In this document: positions 5,384-30,543 of the stretch, piece after piece | Layout of the letters: the number at the start of each line of letters is the position of its first letter | Numbering within the stretch: the stretch's first letter is position 1 | Notes under the pieces: model-generated | Databases searched by the model: none | The model's input: only the letters and a program-made list of their open reading frames with translations | Told to the model about the DNA's origin: nothing | Position numbers and translations under genes: made by a program | DNA from: a virus | Lineage: Duplodnaviria > Caudoviricetes | IMG/VR virus record: IMGVR_UViG_3300035698_029580 | Length of the DNA: 64,000 nt | Direction: 5' to 3' (one strand)

Positions 5384-5815
5384 ATTTTCCAGCGTTATAA
5401 TAATTGGACTATTTAGAACATGTGTGGTATAGTGAAATTTATTTGGTACCTTATTTAGGTCAGAATGGAGAACAAAGATGAAAGTAGAAACAGCCGAAAA
5501 GACAGTTGATGTTAAGTTTTATCGTAGGAGAAATCTGAAAAAAAATAGGGAAGTATATGATACCAGTTGTGTTATCAGTGATATACTTCCAGGTAGGACA
5601 GGAGCAGATAAATATCGTCCTATTGCTGAAGGAATAACCCATCAGAACCCTAAGGATACCAATGATAAAAGGATTGGTCGTAAAATTGCTCTTACAAGGG
5701 TATTAGAAACAACTACTTTTGATAAAATTTCTCGCATATTTGATAAAAAGTTTCGAACAGTAGTGTGGGAAACTTATAAGAAAAATTGTAAGTTGTGAGA
5801 GATATAGTTAATAAA

Positions 5816-6394: not shown

Positions 6395-7525
6395 ATGGAA
6401 AATATTACAGATCTATTAACATCGGTTAGTCAAGTCCATCCGGGAAGAACTTTAGATTTTGACTATATTTATGATGGGTTGCAAAAGGAGGAGGAGAATG
6501 GTTATGTCTCTTCAAATTCTCATCCTAAATATCCTCTGAAAATATATAAGTACACTTCCTCTACCTCTGGAGAAAAAAGGTGGAATATCTTCACTCTTAT
6601 CTCCAGAGGTATTGTTTTAGATGTGCAAAATAAAAAAGTAGTAGCTACTCCTTTCCCTAAATTTTTTAATTTGCAAGAAATGCCCGTTCCCAAAACATGC
6701 ATAACTTTTATGGCCACAGAGAAAATAGACGGGTCATTGGGAATTGCATTTAATTATTCAGGAGAATGGATAATTACAACTGCAGGAGCTTTTGAGACTC
6801 CTCAAGGAATATGGGCAACAACTTATCTAAATAGAATTAATCATAATTTAAATCCTAATAATACTTATTTGTTCGAGATAGTTTATTCTGAGAATAAGAT
6901 AATTGTTAAATATGATCATGAAGGACTTTATATTTTATCAGCATATAACAAAAATGGAAAAGAAGCAAAATTATATGAAATAGAAAAAATATCTTTAGAA
7001 AATAATTTTTTCCTTCCTAAAATATTTTATTTTAATAGTATTTCTGATGCTGTGAAAAATGCTAAAGGACTGCCTGTTAATGAAGAAGGATATGTAATTC
7101 GATATTCCAACGGTGTTAGGGTTAAAATAAAAGGAGAACAATATGTTAGTATGCATAATCTTATTTCCAGAATTACTCCCTTAGGTATCTGGAAAATGAT
7201 ATATACTGGAACAGATATGGGTGAAGTGAGAAAAGAAATACCAGAAGAAATAAAAGATGAATTTGATCATATTAATGAAATTCTTGTTTCTAATTATAAC
7301 TATATGTTGATGGAACTGGAAAATCTCTTTCAAGAAACAGTAAGTTTGTCTAATAAAGAACTTGCTTTTTATATGAGAGACAATAAACTTCATCCTGTTA
7401 ATAAATTATTATTCCATTATAGAAAAATTGGTCATAATTTACCCCTATATGGTACAAAAGTTGACAAAGAAATACTTAAGATGATAAAACCCATTAATAA
7501 TTATCTGGAAAGGTTATACATCTAG
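6395..7525 (+). CDS. T4 Rnl1 (RnlA)-like RNA ligase
   Basis: SRGIV, PFPKFFN, motif I EKIDGS, FEIV, EEGYV, VKIK nucleotidyltransferase motifs. Confidence 0.9.
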   Translation: MENITDLLTSVSQVHPGRTLDFDYIYDGLQKEEENGYVSSNSHPKYPLKIYKYTSSTSGEKRWNIFTLISRGIVLDVQNKKVVATPFPKFFNLQEMPVPKTCITFMATEKIDGSLGIAFNYSGEWIITTAGAFETPQGIWATTYLNRINHNLNPNNTYLFEIVYSENKIIVKYDHEGLYILSAYNKNGKEAKLYEIEKISLENNFFLPKIFYFNSISDAVKNAKGLPVNEEGYVIRYSNGVRVKIKGEQYVSMHNLISRITPLGIWKMIYTGTDMGEVRKEIPEEIKDEFDHINEILVSNYNYMLMELENLFQETVSLSNKELAFYMRDNKLHPVNKLLFHYRKIGHNLPLYGTKVDKEILKMIKPINNYLERLYI

Positions 7526-12860: not shown

Positions 12861-13097
12861 ATGGATAGAAACCTCCACACTTATTGATAAGTGTGTACTT
12901 TCTTATCCAACCTACTACATATAGTAATTTTCTTATGTTTTCCCCAAAAATATACCATATTTAGTAATTTTTCTATTATTTTCCCCAAAATATAGTAATT
13001 CTTTAATTTTCCAGCATTATATAATTTAATTGATATGTGCAGAGAAAGATGGTAAAATTCACCATTAAAAAAAATTTTTAATATAAGGAATTTAATT

Positions 13098-13692: not shown

Positions 13693-15189
13693 ATGAAGAA
13701 ATTGATAATTATTCTATTATTTGTAAGTTCTTTTTGTCTAGCAGATCCCAATGATCCCAACATGCTCTACCCAGACATAAATAATGATGCAATAGTAGAT
13801 GCCAACGATTTAATAATTCTTAAGGAATGTTTCCTTTCCACTGATCCAAATTTTTCTTATGCAGATTTTAATAATGATTTAGAAATTAATCTTCATGATT
13901 TATCTATTCTGTCAAGTAATTGGGGAAAAGAGTCAATTGATAATGATTTAATTGTTAATTGTCCAAATAATGTTATTGGCTCTTTAGATATTTATCCCTC
14001 TGGTTATGACTATCCTGATGACCTTTCTCTATTAGTTGATGGAAAAATTGTTGACTCTTTTAATCCGTGGCAACAAGGAACTTATTTCAATTTAGAGAGT
14101 TTTTGCTTTCCTAATGGAAGTTATGAATTAAGAATTTTTAAATATGATAGTACAGGAAGAGCATGGCTTTCAAATAAATGTATAACCAATTTTGATAATG
14201 TACTATCCAATCTTAATGCAGATAGTTTTGTCAGAGGGCAAGACTATCATTTAACTGCAAATTATGAGGATCCCAATGACTCAAGAGGGCTAAATATAAA
14301 GGTAATAGATTTATTAGATGATAGCATAGTATTTAATACAGATATAGATGGAAACATAGATTTAATAATTCCTTCAAGTGTTTTTATTAATGCTTATTAT
14401 AAAATTGTTATAAAAGAAATTCCTATGGGAATAGCCTCTCTTGGAGATGATGAATTTGATGAGTGGGAAAAAATTGTTTCTGAAAAATTTGATACAGAAA
14501 ATTATCTTACTACTTCTTCTGTAGAAATGCTTATAACTATTCCTGATAGAAAAGTTGCAGAAGCACGATTTTCACATATACAAAAAATTCTTTCCGAGTG
14601 TGATAGAAAACAAATAGAATATTGTATTCTTTACGAAGAAAATTGTACTTGGCAAAATTTTTCTTGGATGATGATTGTCCCACAGGATGTATGCTACTGG
14701 GTAAATATAGGACATGGAAGTACTGAAATAGAAGAGATACAAAGAACAAACATAAAGTTTTATGATTGTACCGTTGTTGCTTGGAAAGGTAGCGACACTC
14801 TAGATCCAAATGATGATTTGCCAAATGTTGAAAATAAAGTAAAATCATTGGCTAGTCTTCATCTTTATGACAAAGGAAAATTAAAATTTGTCTTAATTGA
14901 TGCTTGTGAAAGTGCTCTTGAATCTGATTTTGCCTATTCTTGTGGAATGTTTTCTCAATCTAATTATAGTAGACATGATCAGACTTATGTAGGATGGGCA
15001 GATGTTACTTATGCTGGATGGGCTCTCCCTCAATACAATTATTTCCTAGAAGATTACTGGCATTCTTTTGGGGGAGGAGATTCTGTTTATGAGAGCATTA
15101 TGGATGCTATTGAAGCAAGGTCAGGTAGTTATATTCCTGGAGAAAATATTCGTTTTTGGGGTTCTGCAAACTCTACTTTTTTGAGGTAA
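13693..15189 (+). CDS. secreted protein with dockerin-like Ca-binding repeats
   Basis: signal peptide, DINNDAIVDANDL and DFNNDLEINLHDL repeats, several DPN motifs. Confidence 0.75.
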   Translation: MKKLIIILLFVSSFCLADPNDPNMLYPDINNDAIVDANDLIILKECFLSTDPNFSYADFNNDLEINLHDLSILSSNWGKESIDNDLIVNCPNNVIGSLDIYPSGYDYPDDLSLLVDGKIVDSFNPWQQGTYFNLESFCFPNGSYELRIFKYDSTGRAWLSNKCITNFDNVLSNLNADSFVRGQDYHLTANYEDPNDSRGLNIKVIDLLDDSIVFNTDIDGNIDLIIPSSVFINAYYKIVIKEIPMGIASLGDDEFDEWEKIVSEKFDTENYLTTSSVEMLITIPDRKVAEARFSHIQKILSECDRKQIEYCILYEENCTWQNFSWMMIVPQDVCYWVNIGHGSTEIEEIQRTNIKFYDCTVVAWKGSDTLDPNDDLPNVENKVKSLASLHLYDKGKLKFVLIDACESALESDFAYSCGMFSQSNYSRHDQTYVGWADVTYAGWALPQYNYFLEDYWHSFGGGDSVYESIMDAIEARSGSYIPGENIRFWGSANSTFLR

Positions 15190-17370: not shown

Positions 17371-18702
17371 ATGAGAACAAACGTAAAAGCTAAGGATGGC
17401 AAGGAATTTGTAACTTATGAGGGTGGACGTGCAGTCAGAACCTCAGATGAGAAGTTATTGAGACGTACCTTAATGACTTGTTTTCTGGGTGAAAATACTT
17501 TTTATGAAGATGGAGAGTCTATTAAGGACAGAATTCGTGAACTGGTAGCAAAGGTTGATCCTATAGTTGTAGCATCAATGGCTATTGAAGCTCGTGAACA
17601 AATGAACTTACGTCATGCTCCACTATGGATAGTGAGGGAGATGGCTCGTAATAGATATCCTGGCACAGCAGATACTATTGAGAGAGTAATTCAACGAGCA
17701 GATGAATTAAGTGAATTATTGGCTATGTATTGGGAAGACGGTAAGTGTGCATTGTCTAAGCAACTAAAGCTAGGATTGGCTCGTGCATTTACTAAGTTTA
17801 ACGAGTATCAATTGGCTAAGTATAATAGGAATAACATCGTTAAATTACGAGATGTCTTATTTATGGTACACGCAAAGCCTAAGGACAAAGAACAGGCTGT
17901 TATTTGGAAAAGATTAGTAGATGGTAAATTAAAAACTCCTGATACTTGGGAAGTTGATTTATCTTTGGGAGAAGGTAAGACTACTGATGAAGATAAGAAG
18001 CTTAAGTGGGCAAGGTTGTTAAAAGAGAATAAATTAGGTGGATTAGCATTATTGCGTAATTTACGTAATATGAAAGACGCTGGTGTTAATGAAGATTTGG
18101 TATTTGCTGCATTAAATAACAGTAATTTCAGCAGAGTATTACCATTTAGATTTATTGCTGCGGAAAAATATGTTCCACATTGGTCTGGACAGTTAGAACA
18201 AGTTATGTTCAAAAGTTTAAAAGACGTTAAAAAACTATCAGGTAAAACAGCTGTTTTAGTTGATATAAGTGGTAGCATGAGTTGGTCTAATTTGTCTGAG
18301 AAATCTGATATGTTGAGAAAGGATGGAGCTATTGGATTAGCTATATGTGCTCGTGAACTGTGTGAAGATTGTCGTATATATGCTTTTCACACAGAGGTAT
18401 TTGATGTTCCTGCCCGACGAGGATTTGCCATAAGAGATGCAATTAATAAATTTGGAGCAGGTGGTACTTATTTAGGTGCAGCAGTCAAGCATGTTAATGA
18501 TACTTATGAATATGACCGTATTATTGTTGTAACTGATGAGCAGGCACACGATGTGGTTGGTCCTCCTTTGAAAGACAGTAATGCATATATGATTAACGTA
18601 GCATCGTATAAAAATAGTGTTGGTTATGGAAAATGGGCAAAGATCACAGGTTTTTCTGAATCTATTTTTAAGTACATAAGTGCTTACGAGGAGGAGATTT
18701 AG
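17371..18702 (+). CDS. Ro60/Rsr TROVE-domain RNA-binding protein with C-terminal vWA domain
   Basis: ENTFYE, NLRHAP, RADEL, FNEYQLAKY, PDTWE, ALLRNLRN, VLPFRF; MIDAS DISGSM; GGT; IIVVTDEQ. Confidence 0.93.
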   Translation: MRTNVKAKDGKEFVTYEGGRAVRTSDEKLLRRTLMTCFLGENTFYEDGESIKDRIRELVAKVDPIVVASMAIEAREQMNLRHAPLWIVREMARNRYPGTADTIERVIQRADELSELLAMYWEDGKCALSKQLKLGLARAFTKFNEYQLAKYNRNNIVKLRDVLFMVHAKPKDKEQAVIWKRLVDGKLKTPDTWEVDLSLGEGKTTDEDKKLKWARLLKENKLGGLALLRNLRNMKDAGVNEDLVFAALNNSNFSRVLPFRFIAAEKYVPHWSGQLEQVMFKSLKDVKKLSGKTAVLVDISGSMSWSNLSEKSDMLRKDGAIGLAICARELCEDCRIYAFHTEVFDVPARRGFAIRDAINKFGAGGTYLGAAVKHVNDTYEYDRIIVVTDEQAHDVVGPPLKDSNAYMINVASYKNSVGYGKWAKITGFSESIFKYISAYEEEI

Positions 18703-18711
18703 AGCAAAAAT

Positions 18712-18773
18712 AGGTGGTGAAGTCAAGGGTTACTTCTAAGTTTATGAAAAAACCCCTTGACAACTGTTCCCCT
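18712..18773 (+). ncRNA. Y-RNA-like repeat 1
   Basis: AGGTGGTGAA-GTCAAGGG-TTACTTC...GAA...CCCTTGAC-AACTGTTCCCCT; starts 10 nt after the TROVE stop codon. Confidence 0.75.
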
Positions 18774-18791
18774 TTTTTGTATAATTGGAAT

Positions 18792-18860
18792 TGGTGAGTG
18801 GTGAAGATAAGAGTTACTTCCATTTAAGAAACCATGCTTTTATCGTTTGTTCCCTTACTA
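18792..18860 (+). ncRNA. Y-RNA-like repeat 2
   Basis: GAGTGGTGAA-GATAAGAG-TTACTTC...CTTTTATC-GTTTGTTCCCTT. Confidence 0.75.
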
Positions 18861-18917
18861 TTTTAAGAAATATTTTCTACTATTTTATTTGTGGGAGCCG
18901 TAAAATAGTAAAAAAAT

Positions 18918-18981
18918 TAGGTGGTGAAAATAAGAGTTACTTCTTGCTATTGAAAATGAACTCTTATTGTTTGTTCCCCTA
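18918..18981 (+). ncRNA. Y-RNA-like repeat 3
   Basis: AATAAGAGTT/AACTCTTATT stem inside the conserved GTGGTGAA and TTGTTCCCCT ends. Confidence 0.75.
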
Positions 18982-19010
18982 TATTTTTATTTGAATAAAG
19001 GTTATTAAAA

Positions 19011-19418
19011 ATGAGTATAGATAATAGTTATGGAAAAGGATTTCAGAAATCAGTTATTGAACAGTTGGCTGAACAAAAGGCTCACCCTGAAAAAGTTGCA
19101 AAGTGTCCTTGTTGTAATCATTTTGTATCAGTACCTTCGTATCAATATGATTGTACACTTGTTGAGTATGCATGTGGAACAACGAAGAGTTACACAGGAG
19201 AAATTAAACAGAGTTCAACTTGTATAAAAAATGTTCGAAATAACGACGCTAAGGCTTTTCAAAAGAAAATAGATATTTTGAGTAGTGCAATGCCTACTAC
19301 TATAGGACATCCAGGAGGAAAGTTAGTTAAAGTTGTTGGTCATTATGAAAATGGATCAAAGCAGACTATTGATGGAGCAGTTGTCGAAAAGGCTTGTAAA
19401 GAGGTACATAAAAATTAG
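19011..19418 (+). CDS. hypothetical Cys-rich protein embedded in the Y-RNA-like array
   Basis: 135-aa ORF with AAGG RBS and CPCC motif. Confidence 0.6.
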   Translation: MSIDNSYGKGFQKSVIEQLAEQKAHPEKVAKCPCCNHFVSVPSYQYDCTLVEYACGTTKSYTGEIKQSSTCIKNVRNNDAKAFQKKIDILSSAMPTTIGHPGGKLVKVVGHYENGSKQTIDGAVVEKACKEVHKN

Positions 19419-19543
19419 GTGGTGTAGATAAAAGTTACTTCTACTTCAAATAGAGAAATTTTGGGTTCGAGTCCCAAAACCAATTAAGTTTGGTCTCGTC
19501 TAACGGTAGGACGCTAAAACAACTTTTGTCGATTGTTCCCCTA
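19416..19543 (+). ncRNA. YrlA-like RNA with permuted tRNA module (repeat 4)
   Basis: conserved ends enclose anticodon arm (loop CTTCAAA), T arm TTGGG-TTCGAGT-CCCAA, closed acceptor ACCAA/TTGGT and D arm GTCT-AACGGTA-GGAC. Confidence 0.85.
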
Positions 19544-19579
19544 TATTTTTAAAAAATAATGCATTGATACTGAGTTAGT

Positions 19580-19663
19580 TAAGAGTGGTGAAAATAAAAG
19601 ATACTTCATCAATGAACCTTGTTCGTTAGAAACAAGATCTCTTTTATTGATTGTTCCCTCTTA
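19580..19663 (+). ncRNA. Y-RNA-like repeat 5
   Basis: same conserved ends; insert hairpin CTTGTT-CGTTAGA-AACAAG. Confidence 0.75.
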
Positions 19664-19686
19664 TTTTTTAAAAATTTAGATTAAAA

Positions 19687-19815
19687 CATACAAAAGTGTA
19701 GGTGTGAAAAATCGCGGACACACTGGGTGCCTCTCACTGGTGGACTGGGCCAAGTGGCTGAAAAGTCGAAGAAAACCATCATCAGCCGGAGTAGCGACCG
19801 GCACACTTTTGTATG
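19687..19815 (+). ncRNA. unassigned structured RNA candidate
   Basis: 13-bp terminal stem CATACAAAAGTGT/ACACTTTTGTATG enclosing a GC-rich multi-stem core. Confidence 0.55.
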
Positions 19816-20541: not shown

Positions 20542-21102
20542 ATGGATGAGAAGACACAAACAATTGATAGTGAGAAAGTTATGAAATTATCAGTTATAAA
20601 AGAAGTAGAATGTCTAATTAAAAAATTAAAGTTAAATTGTACTGTAGAAGAATTCCCAGATAAAGTTGATTGGATGTATATTTCTGAACATCAAAAATTA
20701 TCCGAAGATTTTATAAGAGAATTTAAAGATAAAGATACTTGGATAAATATTTTTATTTGGATAAATATTTCTCAACATCAAAAATTATCTGAAGAATTTA
20801 TTAGAGAATTTCAAGATTATGTTAGATGGAATTCTATTTCTGGACATCAAAAATTATCAGAAGAATTTATTAGAGAATTTCAAAATAGAGTTAGTTGGTG
20901 TCTTATTTCTGAATGTCAAAATTTATCAGAAGAATTTTTAAAAGAATTTAAAAATAAAATTTGGTGGTCAGATATTATCTGTCATAGAAAATTATCTTTA
21001 ATGTCTATTTATGAATTGCTAGAAGAGTTAGGGTATAGTTCTGTAGATGATGCAGGTTTCCGGGATCGTATTAAATCGAAGTTAAAAAATGAGAAAATTT
21101 AA
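20542..21102 (+). CDS. Trp-repeat family protein
   Basis: shares near-identical N- and C-termini with 19883-20494. Confidence 0.85.
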   Translation: MDEKTQTIDSEKVMKLSVIKEVECLIKKLKLNCTVEEFPDKVDWMYISEHQKLSEDFIREFKDKDTWINIFIWINISQHQKLSEEFIREFQDYVRWNSISGHQKLSEEFIREFQNRVSWCLISECQNLSEEFLKEFKNKIWWSDIICHRKLSLMSIYELLEELGYSSVDDAGFRDRIKSKLKNEKI

Positions 21103-21344
21103 AAATTTTCCAGCATTATAATTTTTGTTGGATATAAATAGAGGATTTTTAAAAAATATGGCTGAAAACTGGAAATTAAATGAAATTGTTAAATTATCTA
21201 AAGAGGAATCTCTGTCATTGGCAGAAACTCCCTTGAAAGCCTGCCGAGAGATATTTAAAGAATTGGCTAGATGGAGAAGTGAATCTTTAGATTCCAAGAT
21301 AAGAATTAATTGATAATTTTCCAGCATTATAATTTTTGTTGGAT

Positions 21345-21696
21345 AAAAATAGAGGAGTAACCGGGGCATTTGACAACCGAATAATAGTTTGGGCAATGAA
21401 TTATTTGGCTCACCAGACAACAAAACCACAAAACTTACAAAAATGGAGATAAAACCCATGAGTAAAAACAAAGAAACAGTGAATGTGCTATTAGAAAAAT
21501 CAAGTAAATGCGAAAAATCAGAAGACGCTATGAGGTTTTCACAAGCGGCATTGAATTGTTCACAGGCAATTCAGATATTATTTTTTGTAGAAAAAGACGA
21601 GAAAGAAGCGAAGTAGTTAGATACTAATACTTGGTGAGCCAAATGATTCATTACCCTGGTATTAGCTCTTTTTCGTAACTGAAAAAAAATAGAGGA
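21345..21696 (+). mobile_element. small inserted element: ORF enclosed by 25-bp inverted repeats, flanked by 12-bp direct repeats
   Basis: AAAAATAGAGGA at 21345-21356 and 21685-21696; inverted repeats at 21391-21415 and 21632-21656. Confidence 0.5.
21458..21616 (+). CDS. 52-aa hypothetical protein (MSKNKETV...AMRFSQAALNCSQA...)
   Basis: GGAG RBS before ATG 21458; lies inside the inverted repeats. Confidence 0.65.
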   Translation: MSKNKETVNVLLEKSSKCEKSEDAMRFSQAALNCSQAIQILFFVEKDEKEAK

Positions 21697-21724
21697 TTTT
21701 GAAAAATAGGTTAGAAATAGAAGA

Positions 21725-21798
21725 AGAGAGTGGTGTAAATAAGAGTTACTTCAATAATTTGGTATCGAAAAAAGCTTTTATTGATTGTTCCCTCTTTT
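21725..21798 (+). ncRNA. Y-RNA-like repeat 6
   Basis: GAGTGGTGTA-AATAAGAG-TTACTTC...CTTTTATT-GATTGTTCCCTC. Confidence 0.75.
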
Positions 21799-21814
21799 AT
21801 TTTTGAGAAAAATT

Positions 21815-21913
21815 ATGACTAAAAAACAACAAATAGATAGTTTACCCATGTCCAGGATTGCCTGGTCATTTGCAGGTAGACATAATGCCTGCGAAAAACC
21901 AGGAGGTCCGTGA
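21815..21913 (+). CDS. putative 32-aa leader peptide MTKKQQIDSLPMSRIAWSFAGRHNACEKPGGP
   Basis: open frame whose TGA abuts the antiterminator arm; no strong RBS. Confidence 0.55.
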   Translation: MTKKQQIDSLPMSRIAWSFAGRHNACEKPGGP

Positions 21914-21941
21914 ACTAGCCGTTAAATAAAAAGGATTTTAC

Positions 21942-21971
21942 AAGACGGCTAGAAAAAGCCGTCTTTTTTTT
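21942..21971 (+). terminator. intrinsic terminator with a competing antiterminator
   Basis: AAGACGGCT/AGCCGTCTT plus T-run; CTAGCCGT (21915-21922) can pair with ACGGCTAG (21945-21952). Confidence 0.8.
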
Positions 21972-22000
21972 ATGCAAAAATTTTTAAGGAAATAAAAAAA

Positions 22001-22186
22001 ATGGAAGTAAAAAGAAAAACAAGTGATGCCGTTAAAATCTTATATCACCGATATATTGATGGAAATCCAGAGAGAGAGAAAGCTGTGCAGACAGAACGTA
22101 TCAATGCTGATGTTGAATGCATGGTATACGAATTTTATGAATTAGCTAAGAAATATGGATTTTTAGCTCCTAAGGAGTATAAATAG
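22001..22186 (+). CDS. short protein resembling the N-terminus of XRE-type antitoxins
   Basis: TSDAVKILYHRYIDGNPER...ERINADV; no HTH follows; recognised from memory only. Confidence 0.4.
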   Translation: MEVKRKTSDAVKILYHRYIDGNPEREKAVQTERINADVECMVYEFYELAKKYGFLAPKEYK

Positions 22187-22259
22187 GGGTATAGTTTAAT
22201 TGGCCAAAATATTGGAATTTGACTCCAAAGACATATAGGTTCGAGTCCTATTGCCCCCA
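22185..22259 (+). tRNA. tRNA-Gln(UUG)
   Basis: anticodon arm TTGGA-ATTTGAC-TCCAA; T arm ATAGG-TTCGAGT-CCTAT. Confidence 0.85.
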
Positions 22260-22275
22260 TTGAAAAGTGAATAAT

Positions 22276-22381
22276 TGTTCTGTAGTGTAAGCAGTTGGTT
22301 TTAACCATAGTGGCTATAAACCAAAGTGATAGTAGCACATCTTTCTAGAAGAAGATTTAGGTGCAAATCCTAACAGAACAG
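22276..22381 (+). tRNA. atypical tRNA-like gene, possible CUA anticodon, expanded D-loop
   Basis: acceptor TGTTCTG/CAGAACA, T arm TTAGG-TGCAAAT-CCTAA, D stem GTGT/GCAC with about 46-nt loop, short arm TCT-TTCTAGA-AGA. Confidence 0.55.
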
Positions 22382-22397
22382 TTGAAAAGTGAATAAT

Positions 22398-22470
22398 TCC
22401 CGGGTAACTCAATTGTTAGAGTGACGTGCTGTTAACACGTAAGTTGGAAGTTAGAGTCTTCCTCCGGGAG
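22398..22470 (+). tRNA. tRNA-Asn(GUU)
   Basis: ACGTG-CTGTTAA-CACGT anticodon arm; full cloverleaf. Confidence 0.88.
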
Positions 22471-22555
22471 GTTTAGTTCTTTGACAAGTAAAGAGGTGTG
22501 GTTGTAATAATTGGAAATTACAGTGTTCCCCAAACACTGTTTTCTATAAATGTCT

Positions 22556-22587
22556 GCCCCCAGAGGACTTAAGTATCCTCTGGGGGT
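22556..22587. repeat. GC-rich hairpin inside the tRNA cluster
   Basis: CCCCCAGAGGA/TCCTCTGGGGG inverted repeat. Confidence 0.6.
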
Positions 22588-22598
22588 GGAGTAAATGA

Positions 22599-22669
22599 CC
22601 CATCATGGTGTAAAGGCAGCACAAAATACTGTCCATATTTAAGCCCCGGATCGTTACCGGGTGGTGGGA
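22599..22669 (+). tRNA. tRNA-Asp(GUC)
   Basis: AAATA-CTGTCCA-TATTT; acceptor CCCATCA/TGGTGGG. Confidence 0.8.
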
Positions 22670-22734
22670 TTGGTGTAATGATCGCATATGACTATGCCAC
22701 AGTCAAGGAAAGAGTTTGATTCTCTTATCCCACT
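22664..22734 (+). tRNA. tRNA-Gly(GCC), overlapping tRNA-Asp
   Basis: acceptor GTGGGAT/ATCCCAC; TGACT-ATGCCAC-AGTCA. Confidence 0.8.
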
Positions 22735-23071
22735 TTTCTATTATTTTCCAGCATTATACAAATGCTTATAATAGAGTAGATAATGAAGAAAATTGCTATA
22801 ATAAGGAAATAAAATGAAAAATATGACATTTGAATTATCACTTTTTTCAGAAAATAATTACTGTTATTCTGAAGGATATCAAATTAAGAGAGGTATTCCT
22901 GTTAATGTATATTTAGCAGATATTGTAGAATTTAATAAAAAAAAGATAATTAGATTAAATGATGGATGGGGAAATATTTTCTATACTAATGATTATAATG
23001 TTGTTAAAATGGTAGAAGGTATAAGAAAAGGAACAATTGAGAGTAAATGTACTGATAAATTAGGACATTAG

Positions 23072-23162
23072 GGCACAGTGGCAGAGTTTGGTTTATTGCG
23101 ACTGACCGCTAATCAGTTAGGCTCAGAAATGGGTCTCAAGGGTTCAAATCCTTTCTGTGCCG
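23072..23162 (+). tRNA. tRNA-Ser(GCU)
   Basis: ACTGA-CCGCTAA-TCAGT, long variable arm, G73. Confidence 0.88.
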
Positions 23163-23494
23163 TTTGTAGAATGTTGTAATTACTATATTTAAGGAAGTAA
23201 AAAAGATGCTAGAACGAGAAAATTTTATTGATGTCACTAAAGAGTATGACAAGAAAGAAGTAATTAACATAAGGAGTATCAGTAGAATAGAAGAATTTGA
23301 ATCTCCTATTAAAAATGTTCTTCATTCTAGAATTCATTTCAATAATTCTATAGAATTGTTACCAGTCAAAGAAACAGTTGCTGAGATTAATGAGAAAATT
23401 AGTCATACATATGAAATAAGAAATAGTGAATTAAAAACACTTTTATCAAGTGTATTTAAACAGAGCAAATTAGGTTCTCTTCATGTATGATAAA

Positions 23495-23575
23495 GGAGTA
23501 ATGGGAGCATGGGCTCAATCGGACTTGAAATCCGTCCCTACTGAGAGGTAGACCGTTCGATTCGGTATTACTCCG
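23495..23575 (+). tRNA. tRNA-Ser(UGA) with 8/4 (allo-tRNA-like) fold
   Basis: acceptor GGAGTAAT/ATTACTCC, T stem ACCG/CGGT, D arm GAGC-ATGG-GCTC, loop CTTGAAA. Confidence 0.75.
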
Positions 23576-30470: not shown

Positions 30471-30543
30471 CGGTTCGTAGCTCAGTTGGTAGAGAATCGG
30501 ATTCTTAATCCGAAAGGCGTAGGTCCAAATCCTACCAGGGCTA
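30471..30543 (+). tRNA. tRNA-Lys(CUU), irregular acceptor stem
   Basis: TCGGA-TTCTTAA-TCCGA; acceptor pairing imperfect. Confidence 0.7.

Follow-up and report, generated by a model that had tools for sequence, protein, structure and literature searches.

We found that the entrance of the tRNA array of a giant phage probably carries a real, conserved, and bistable transcription attenuator, which gates an antitoxin-like gene and five tRNA genes. The switch lies in a window, i.e., the whole stretch of 64,000 nt that was analyzed, which is part of a very large, AT-rich phage genome and has all its genes on the + strand. Between positions 19413 and 39406, ARAGORN identified 27 tRNA genes and Rfam added two more; a tRNA at 30472-30543 (47.9 bits in Rfam) was missed by ARAGORN. 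A type I dockerin domain (E = 5e-7) in the 498-aa product of the gene at 13693-15189 hints at a cellulosome-bearing host of the Clostridia type. The coordinates of the switch and of its surroundings are given in Table 1.

Table 1. The switch and its neighborhood in the window, in order of position.
Feature	Position	Strand	Remarks
RNA ligase gene	6395-7525	+	Upstream of the switch
Ro60/TROVE protein gene	17371-18702	+	Upstream of the switch
Closest upstream copy of the recurrent promoter	21317..21347	+	TTTTCCAGCATTATA motif; presumed start of the transcription unit of the switch
Sixth Y-RNA-like cassette (c6)	21732..21806	+	Ends 8 nt before the small ORF; in lineage A, missing here in lineage B
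Small ORF of 32 codons (MTKKQQIDSLPMSRIAWSFAGRHNACEKPGGP, then stop)	ATG 21815 to TGA 21911-21913	+	Intact in lineages A and B
Long imperfect hairpin H1	21838..21917	+	From folding; 29 bp in four helices; codons 9-32 (~80 nt)
Shine-Dalgarno-like AGGAGGT inside the ORF	21901..21907	+	Pro codon CCG and stop come next; invariant alignment columns
Antiterminator, two-tier hairpin	21915..21952	+	Lower stem CTAGCCGTT/GACGGCTAG, 3x3 internal loop, upper stem TAAAA/TTTTA; dG -13.4 kcal/mol
Intrinsic terminator	21942..21971	+	9-bp stem (5 G-C pairs), 6-nt loop, T8; dG -13.4 kcal/mol
61-aa gene	22001..22186	+	Between terminator and tRNA-Gln; ATG 27 nt past the T-tract, AAGG 11 nt before ATG
First tRNA cluster: Gln(UUG), odd tRNA-like gene, Asn(GUU), Asp(GUC), Gly(GCC)	22184..22735	+	Same order in lineages A and B
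Next copy of the recurrent promoter	22744..22772	+	TTTTCCAGCATTATA motif; the readthrough-dependent stretch ends here

The core of the switch is a pair of alternative hairpins. The initial annotation had noted that CTAGCCGT (21915-21922), one base 3' of the stop codon of a small ORF, could pair with the 5' arm of a strong intrinsic terminator, and both observations hold. The octamer is the exact reverse complement of ACGGCTAG (21945-21952), and the terminator, AAGACGGCT-AGAAAA-AGCCGTCTT followed by T8 (stem at 21942-21965, T-tract up to 21971), was the top terminator match. It is one of only two convincing intrinsic terminators on the + strand of the 64 kb, the other being at 40217. A perfect 8-nt complement to the terminator 5' arm within the preceding 80 nt was present in 73 of 20000 dinucleotide shuffles (p ~0.004). 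Of 9132 genome windows, 16 had one, and the majority of these overlap the real site. Since the terminator 5' arm is common to the antiterminator, the two folds are mutually exclusive; their dG values are equal in the window and similar in the related lineages A and B. The hairpin H1 precedes them, and its basal helix takes in the stop codon as well as 3 nt at the start of the antiterminator arm; in our models it could extend to 21832-21923, which in the window takes in up to the whole antiterminator arm. For the 176-nt region the predicted folding energy is -52.5 kcal/mol, and that of its shuffles -30.8 ± 3.4 (z = -6.38); H1 alone, which includes most of the ORF, reaches -37 kcal/mol. No Rfam family matched the switch region at gathering score, and within 21500-22400 only tRNA scored well, the other scores being at chance level. 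T-box-like tRNA sensing was rejected, because the antiterminator has no UGG bulge and no Rfam match.

The genes beyond the terminator lack a recognizable promoter of their own. The recurrent promoter motif of the window consists of TTTTCCAGCATTATA and a -10-like element ~17 nt past TTTCCA, and has 25 copies on the + strand, including those at 13007, 21106, 21317, 22744, and 40267. It reads as a sigma70-type promoter, with TTTCCA as the -35, a conserved spacer, TATAAT/GATAAA as the -10-like element, and TAGAG near the likely start. The motif had been described as absent between the terminator and the first tRNAs, and this was confirmed: two copies are found at 21317 and 22744, and none between them. 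We also sought an internal promoter in 21972-22185, and neither the recurrent motif nor a sigma70-like site was found there on the + strand, or further on before 22744. Hence, the 61-aa gene and the five tRNAs appear to need readthrough of the terminator, and because the next promoter is at 22744 the switch can affect only these genes. The earlier proposal of control over the first tRNA cluster must therefore be restricted to the five tRNAs before 22744, leaving out the rest of the array, and widened to the 61-aa antitoxin-like gene, which is also within the unit. A candidate internal promoter in the apical loop of H1 (TTGCCT-17-CATAAT) was rejected, since its -35 is not kept in lineages A and B and matches at 9 of 12 positions occur at chance frequency.

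The ribosome-binding site of the 61-aa gene begins 15 nt past the T-tract. The first ~45 residues of its product match the N-terminal extension of XRE/HTH_37 antitoxin-like proteins, whereas the HTH of those proteins is missing from it. The protein has three clusters of homologues, with 78-84% identity, and the gene is under purifying selection (pN/pS 0.22). A gene that is selected and has no promoter implies that readthrough must occur, and the conservation of a strong terminator implies that the latter must also be used. Among the tRNA genes that follow, the second (22276-22381) is odd: it scores 34 bits in Rfam, has a 44-nt insert in the D-loop, and is not called by ARAGORN even when the insert is trial-deleted. 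Its anticodon arm can be drawn in two ways: a stem of 6 bp closing the 6-nt loop CUAGAA, or one of 5 bp closing an 8-nt loop. The gene is 84-86% conserved, and gap-free, in lineages A and B. The same 17-nt leader, TTGAAAAGTGAATAATT, is found before this odd tRNA (22260-22276) and before tRNA-Asn (22382-22398). The two 15-nt spacers that contain this leader are 100% conserved in A and B, whereas for the tRNAs on either side the difference reaches 40% in A; judging from the sequences, the leader may be a processing signal.

The leader of the array was compared with its variants in metagenomic lineages A, B/B2, and (partially) C. The related contigs (L001-L011) carry, in the same order as the window, the Ro60 gene, further genes, the ORF and hairpin, the terminator, a 60-aa gene, and the tRNAs Gln-Asn-Asp-Gly-Ser. 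The three lineages have ~12% nucleotide divergence at the leader, and a synonymous divergence of 0.46-0.55 in the next gene; they maintain both alternative folds, the spacing, and the gene order. The ATG, the frame, the 32 codons, and the position of the stop are also kept, with TGA in A and TAA in B. A constant distance between ORF and hairpin in related phages was among the checks suggested at the start, and indeed, in all variants, a single nucleotide (A/T/C) separates the stop from the antiterminator arm, and it is the only one there to vary freely. The middle arm, AAGACGGCTAG, shows no variation. The antiterminator arm shows a change of C to T opposite a G, and an identical change is found in the terminator 3' arm of B and C. 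In the three upper helices of H1, 96.7% of the cells are paired and the changes are only wobble-compatible; the antiterminator has 100% of its cells paired in 5 sequences, with one C-to-U wobble change. Taken together, 98% of the pair cells of these upper helices and the antiterminator are paired, against 34-48% in slid controls, the basal helix and the terminator being outside this count. The alignment places one mismatched pair (U27/N100) in the H1 basal helix of A and B. There are no compensatory double changes, because all five varying pairs change on one side. Hence, there is no true covariation, and these relatives are too close to prove the helices.

The switch seems to be specific to these lineages. 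A blastn search with 21000-23500 gave no match in INPHARED, and none of the queries used on IMG/VR (the 61-aa protein, a window-specific hairpin word, a degenerate junction pattern, and the Ro60 protein) gave relatives. The junction pattern retrieved from the JGI metagenomes only the known lineage-B contig and two G+C-rich chance matches. Scanning IMG/VR with the 17-nt tRNA leader gave 15 chance matches, where only one phage (L019) was related, weakly. This 189-kb phage has a 35-tRNA array and lacks both the Ro60 gene and a terminator/small-ORF module before its first tRNA. The absence of the module from a distantly related phage that has a tRNA array argues for a lineage-specific switch.

The pattern of conservation within the small ORF points to constraint on the RNA, not on the peptide. 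The initial description of this ORF, 32 codons ending at TGA 21911-21913 and 18 different amino acids with no Val or Tyr, agrees with our coordinates and translation. At least 18 different residues in 32 are found in 2-5% of the controls, which is only mildly unusual, and the + strand has 68 ATG ORFs in the range of 25-45 codons, such that the small ORF is by itself not unusual. Its pN/pS between lineages is 0.66-1.0, compared with 0.22 for the adjacent 61-aa gene, and no purifying selection was detected on its amino-acid sequence. Its pS is 0.10-0.18, compared with 0.46-0.55 in the neighboring gene, which makes its synonymous sites 3-5x more conserved. DNA identity between lineages (88-89%) exceeds peptide identity (72-75%), the reverse of what is seen in the adjoining real gene. 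The substitutions are in the 5' tail, the bulge, or the apical loop (codon positions 1 and 2 included), or are wobble-compatible in the stems. It is the combination of a pN/pS close to 1 with unusually conserved synonymous sites that indicates RNA-level constraint. At the level of the sequence, RNA structure alone explains the conservation of the region, and the ORF could be incidental.

Other evidence on the coding status of the ORF is mixed. Its retention is weakly informative, since the simulated chance of it staying intact is p ~0.2-0.6 per lineage. Its Shine-Dalgarno sequence is weak in the window (GAG), absent in lineage A, and GGTGA-like in lineage B, where it is 4 nt before the ATG; the quality of this signal has a wide range among the real genes of the phage. 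Gene callers annotated the ORF in none of 18 related contigs (11 with gene tables), and a homologue search with the 42-aa extended ORF as query gave no called homologous peptide. Two recoding events at its end were considered and rejected. A prfB-like +1 frameshift at AGGAGGU-CCG-UGA does not fit, because in the +1 frame CCG has no way to re-pair, and the stop of lineage B is UAA. Opal readthrough of the stop would change little, since an in-frame TAA occurs three codons on in all variants.

How would such a switch be set? We propose a cis-acting transcription attenuator within a sigma70-type phage transcription unit. Once polymerase is past H1, the nascent RNA would fold either as the antiterminator (21915-21952) or as the equally stable terminator (21942-21971). 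The antiterminator would be made first and, as the default fold, let polymerase continue into the 61-aa gene and the five tRNA genes. Before synthesis of the terminator 3' arm, folding predictions give the antiterminator arm a probability of 0.97-1.0 of pairing with downstream sequence in all four variants, with displacement of the basal helix of H1. If the antiterminator pairs first, some agent must block it for the terminator to be used, and a ribosome reaching the stop codon would be the simplest agent able to do so. The likeliest setter is thus a ribosome on the overlapping 32-codon ORF, provided that the ORF is translated and that the position of the ribosome sets the fold. A ribosome keeping pace would stand on the Pro-stop codons (21908-21913), where its footprint would hide the 5' arm of the antiterminator and lead to the terminator. 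A ribosome that is absent, late, or held earlier, e.g., while unwinding H1, would leave the antiterminator to form, and readthrough would be expected to rise when translation is impaired. The peptide would have no function; the position of the ribosome alone would matter. A C-terminal Pro slows peptide release, and the invariant AGGAGGT-CCG(Pro)-stop context fits a long residence of the ribosome at the stop.

The folding predictions also show on what this mechanism depends. When a ribosome footprint is masked at either the last sense codon or the stop, terminator occupancy is 0.99-1.0 in all variants, a result that is a test of geometry only. With the whole region made, the equilibrium occupancy of the terminator is 0.93 (window), 0.92 (lineage B), and 0.27 (lineage A). 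For the first two of these, the terminator wins whether or not there is a stalled ribosome, and the ribosome model therefore depends on kinetics. The attenuation logic of the initial annotation, in which a ribosome at the stop codon leads to termination, fares well on the non-random alternative folds, the footprint result, and the retention of the ORF in relatives, its basis being geometry and prediction. We tentatively favor a switch set by a ribosome on the putatively translated ORF as the best single mechanism in our models, with somewhat less than an even chance of being right.

A possible, if somewhat less likely, alternative is an attenuator that works without ribosomes. The element might be bistable because of its folding kinetics, acting as a partial terminator of fixed strength that balances upstream against downstream products, or it might respond to the binding of a trans-acting factor, protein or RNA, to H1 or to the antiterminator, as in BglG/RAT or in riboswitches. 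The ORF would then be an accident of a G+C-richer structured segment. The nucleotide-level constraint (pS 3-5x below the neighbor, pN/pS ~1) is explained equally well in this way. The location of the substitutions in loops and bulges or at wobble-compatible positions, the inconsistent Shine-Dalgarno across lineages, and the high stability of H1 (z = -6.4) also speak for it. Yet, its unpaired nucleotides vary, including 2 of 7 apical loop positions and bulge positions, unlike those of a ligand aptamer. The 3-nt overlap between the basal helix of H1 and the antiterminator arm recalls a P1 helix and its expression platform, but the base of H1 is predicted to lose to the antiterminator (at least 0.97) before terminator synthesis, which leaves slow strand displacement as the only RNA-only route to the terminator. 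Similarly, the two-tier antiterminator with an internal loop resembles the protein-bound RAT element, but there is no Rfam match of any kind. Finally, the stop has stayed right next to the arm through the change of TGA to TAA, as a ribosome-set switch would have it, though the G-to-A change also keeps the base pair.

Upstream of the switch, six Y-RNA-like cassettes are found just 3' of the Ro60 gene (18716-19665 and 21732-21806). They share a 5' GGTGGTGaAnATAAGAGTTACTTC and a 3' CTyTTATyGaTTGTTCCC, and their inner helix covaries (ATAAGAG/CTCTTAT, vs TCAAGGG/CCCTTGA in copy 1). The first cassette includes, at 18757-18785, one of the only two perfect TTGACA-N17-TATAAT promoters of the window. 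The -35 of this promoter lies within the covarying helix, and the cassettes that follow would be transcribed from it. Copy 4 has a T-arm-like module and is called tRNA-SeC(tca) by ARAGORN. In the sixth, c6, a purine-rich 5' flank and a pyrimidine-rich 3' tail make a long terminal stem. Following cassette 5, a G+C-rich structured segment (19687-19815) has a clear homologue in lineage A (L001, ~5581-5650), which there directly precedes the promoter motif, c6, and the leader. Relative to 21644-21820 of the window, lineage B (L005-L010) misses ~170 nt, c6 included, with the junction at an ATGATT repeat, which suggests a deletion between two such repeats. Given this junction, the ATG of the ORF in B derives from the 3' arm of a long inverted repeat that flanks the 52-aa gene of the window. 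The absence of c6 from the locus in B indicates that it is a separate module, outside the switch. Bacterial Y RNAs (YrlA/YrlB) have an Rsr-binding motif, GNCGAAN0-1G, near the 5' end and within a long terminal stem (PMC4201824). H1 has no Rfam match to them, and GGUCCGU on its 3' strand is a loose resemblance only; Ro60 binding by GGUCCG in H1 was rejected on the same grounds. The six upstream cassettes, with their GGUGAAG-type 5' motif, are better Y-like candidates by sequence than H1, and they too have no Rfam match. Elsewhere in the window (40106-40254), a perfect sigma70 promoter (TTGACA-N16-TATAAT), a ~115-nt structured transcript, and a 17-bp terminator make what is likely a stand-alone small RNA. 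It is directly 5' of a gene (40350-41639) whose product combines a PARP catalytic domain (Pfam E = 2.5e-28) with PARP regulatory and WGR domains.

In this setting, H1 and the terminator might be just the 3' end of a non-coding transcript made of c6 and H1, which we regard as unlikely. The terminator would mainly stop transcription coming from the Ro60/Y-RNA-like region, the downstream genes would be expressed by leakage or from an unrecognized promoter, and the complementarity would result from a partial duplication of the terminator arm. The layout of stem-loop, A/U-rich stretch, and U8 terminator does resemble that of many sRNAs, but a plain sRNA tail has no need for a complete and conserved antiterminator, iso-energetic with the terminator, and the complement has p ~0.004 by chance. 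In lineage A, a promoter copy ~60 nt before c6 would put promoter, c6, H1, and terminator in a compact 300 nt, but no promoter was found for the 61-aa gene, which has its RBS 15 nt past the T-tract and is, with the five unique tRNAs, conserved and selected. The presence of a Ro60/TROVE gene and five more Y-like cassettes 3 kb upstream, and the observation that the other strong terminator (40217) ends an obvious small-RNA unit with a perfect sigma70 promoter, remain in favor of a small RNA. It is highly improbable that the ORF is an ordinary small gene with its own terminator and a functional 32-aa product: it is intact in all lineages and, in lineage B, comes after a 52-aa gene in the manner of an operon member (GGTGA 4 nt 5' of the ATG), but the pN/pS of 0.66-1.0, the peptide identity of 72-75% for 88-89% in DNA, the hairpin-loop changes at codon positions 1 and 2, and the lack of a called homologue all argue against it.

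If a ribosome sets the switch, the next question is what the ribosome would report. The initial annotation saw in it a general sensor of tRNA damage, a reading that we consider speculative and doubtful. The ORF has no regulatory run of codons (18 different residues), which limits its resemblance to known leaders to the subclass of general stalling, as opposed to the trp/his type. Another conjecture, also improbable as it stands, is a gauge of translation speed. The ribosome would have to unwind the stable H1 and reach the slow Pro-stop codons in time to block the antiterminator. An attack on translation would delay it and turn on a toxin-neutralizing peptide and replacement tRNAs, including a possible suppressor-like tRNA. 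Attacks causing such delays would include tRNA cleavage, tRNA depletion, and ribosome-dependent toxins, and the phage would then encode a feedback loop between translation damage and tRNA supply. We found no attenuator preceding a phage tRNA cluster in the literature searched. Coupling of tRNA supply to the state of translation by the switch would be the first indication of such a link in a phage. Without any role of the ribosome, this is still a compact, conserved, and bistable attenuator of ~160 nt. The entrance of the array, with its five tRNAs, would be gated on its own, apart from the cassettes after it, which have promoters at their heads.

Several known systems share parts of this architecture. 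Leader-peptide attenuators control amino-acid operons, as in trpL, hisL, and pheL (for pheL, PMC3082878). Like these, the phage region has a short leader ORF, mutually exclusive antiterminator and terminator hairpins with a common arm, and an upstream hairpin that overlaps this arm; in our models, a ribosome at the stop would likewise mask the 5' arm of the antiterminator. Unlike them, the phage ORF has no run of codons for a single amino acid and is only a putative leader ORF, and the genes under control are tRNAs and an antitoxin-like peptide instead of a biosynthetic operon. The upstream hairpin of the phage is also far larger, and overlaps the antiterminator arm by just 3 nt. For this reason, the predicted default in the absence of ribosomes is readthrough, not termination.

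The protein-dependent antiterminators of BglG/SacY (RAT elements) and the expression platforms of riboswitches also feature an imperfect two-tier hairpin that overlaps, and competes with, the 5' arm of an intrinsic terminator. The phage antiterminator differs from them in being as stable as the terminator without a ligand, and Rfam shows neither a RAT-like nor a riboswitch match. At the level of function, phage tRNA arrays have been proposed to act as counter-defense against host nucleases that target tRNAs (PMC10264068). As in those systems, our phage has a large set of tRNAs beside RNA-repair genes (RNA ligase and Ro60/TROVE); the published work concerns evasion by tRNA sequence, and not control of the transcription of the array. 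The association of RNA-repair neighbors with a large tRNA set provides a rationale for tying tRNA supply to translation stress.

Leader ORFs that respond to antibiotics control resistance genes by attenuation in Firmicutes. In E. coli, toiL is a multipurpose uORF of the topAI-yjhQ toxin-antitoxin transcript (PMC12121999). The concept is similar to that proposed here, since these uORFs have no codon runs and the position of the ribosome reports general translation stress and remodels the downstream RNA. As with toiL, the gene under control in the phage is related to toxin-antitoxin systems. The mechanisms differ, because toiL acts by occlusion of the RBS and Rho-dependent termination, whereas the phage switch has an intrinsic terminator and gates tRNA genes. 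By analogy, the switch appears nearer in concept to the sensing of general translation stress by uORFs, as in toiL (PMC12121999), than to attenuators based on codon runs.
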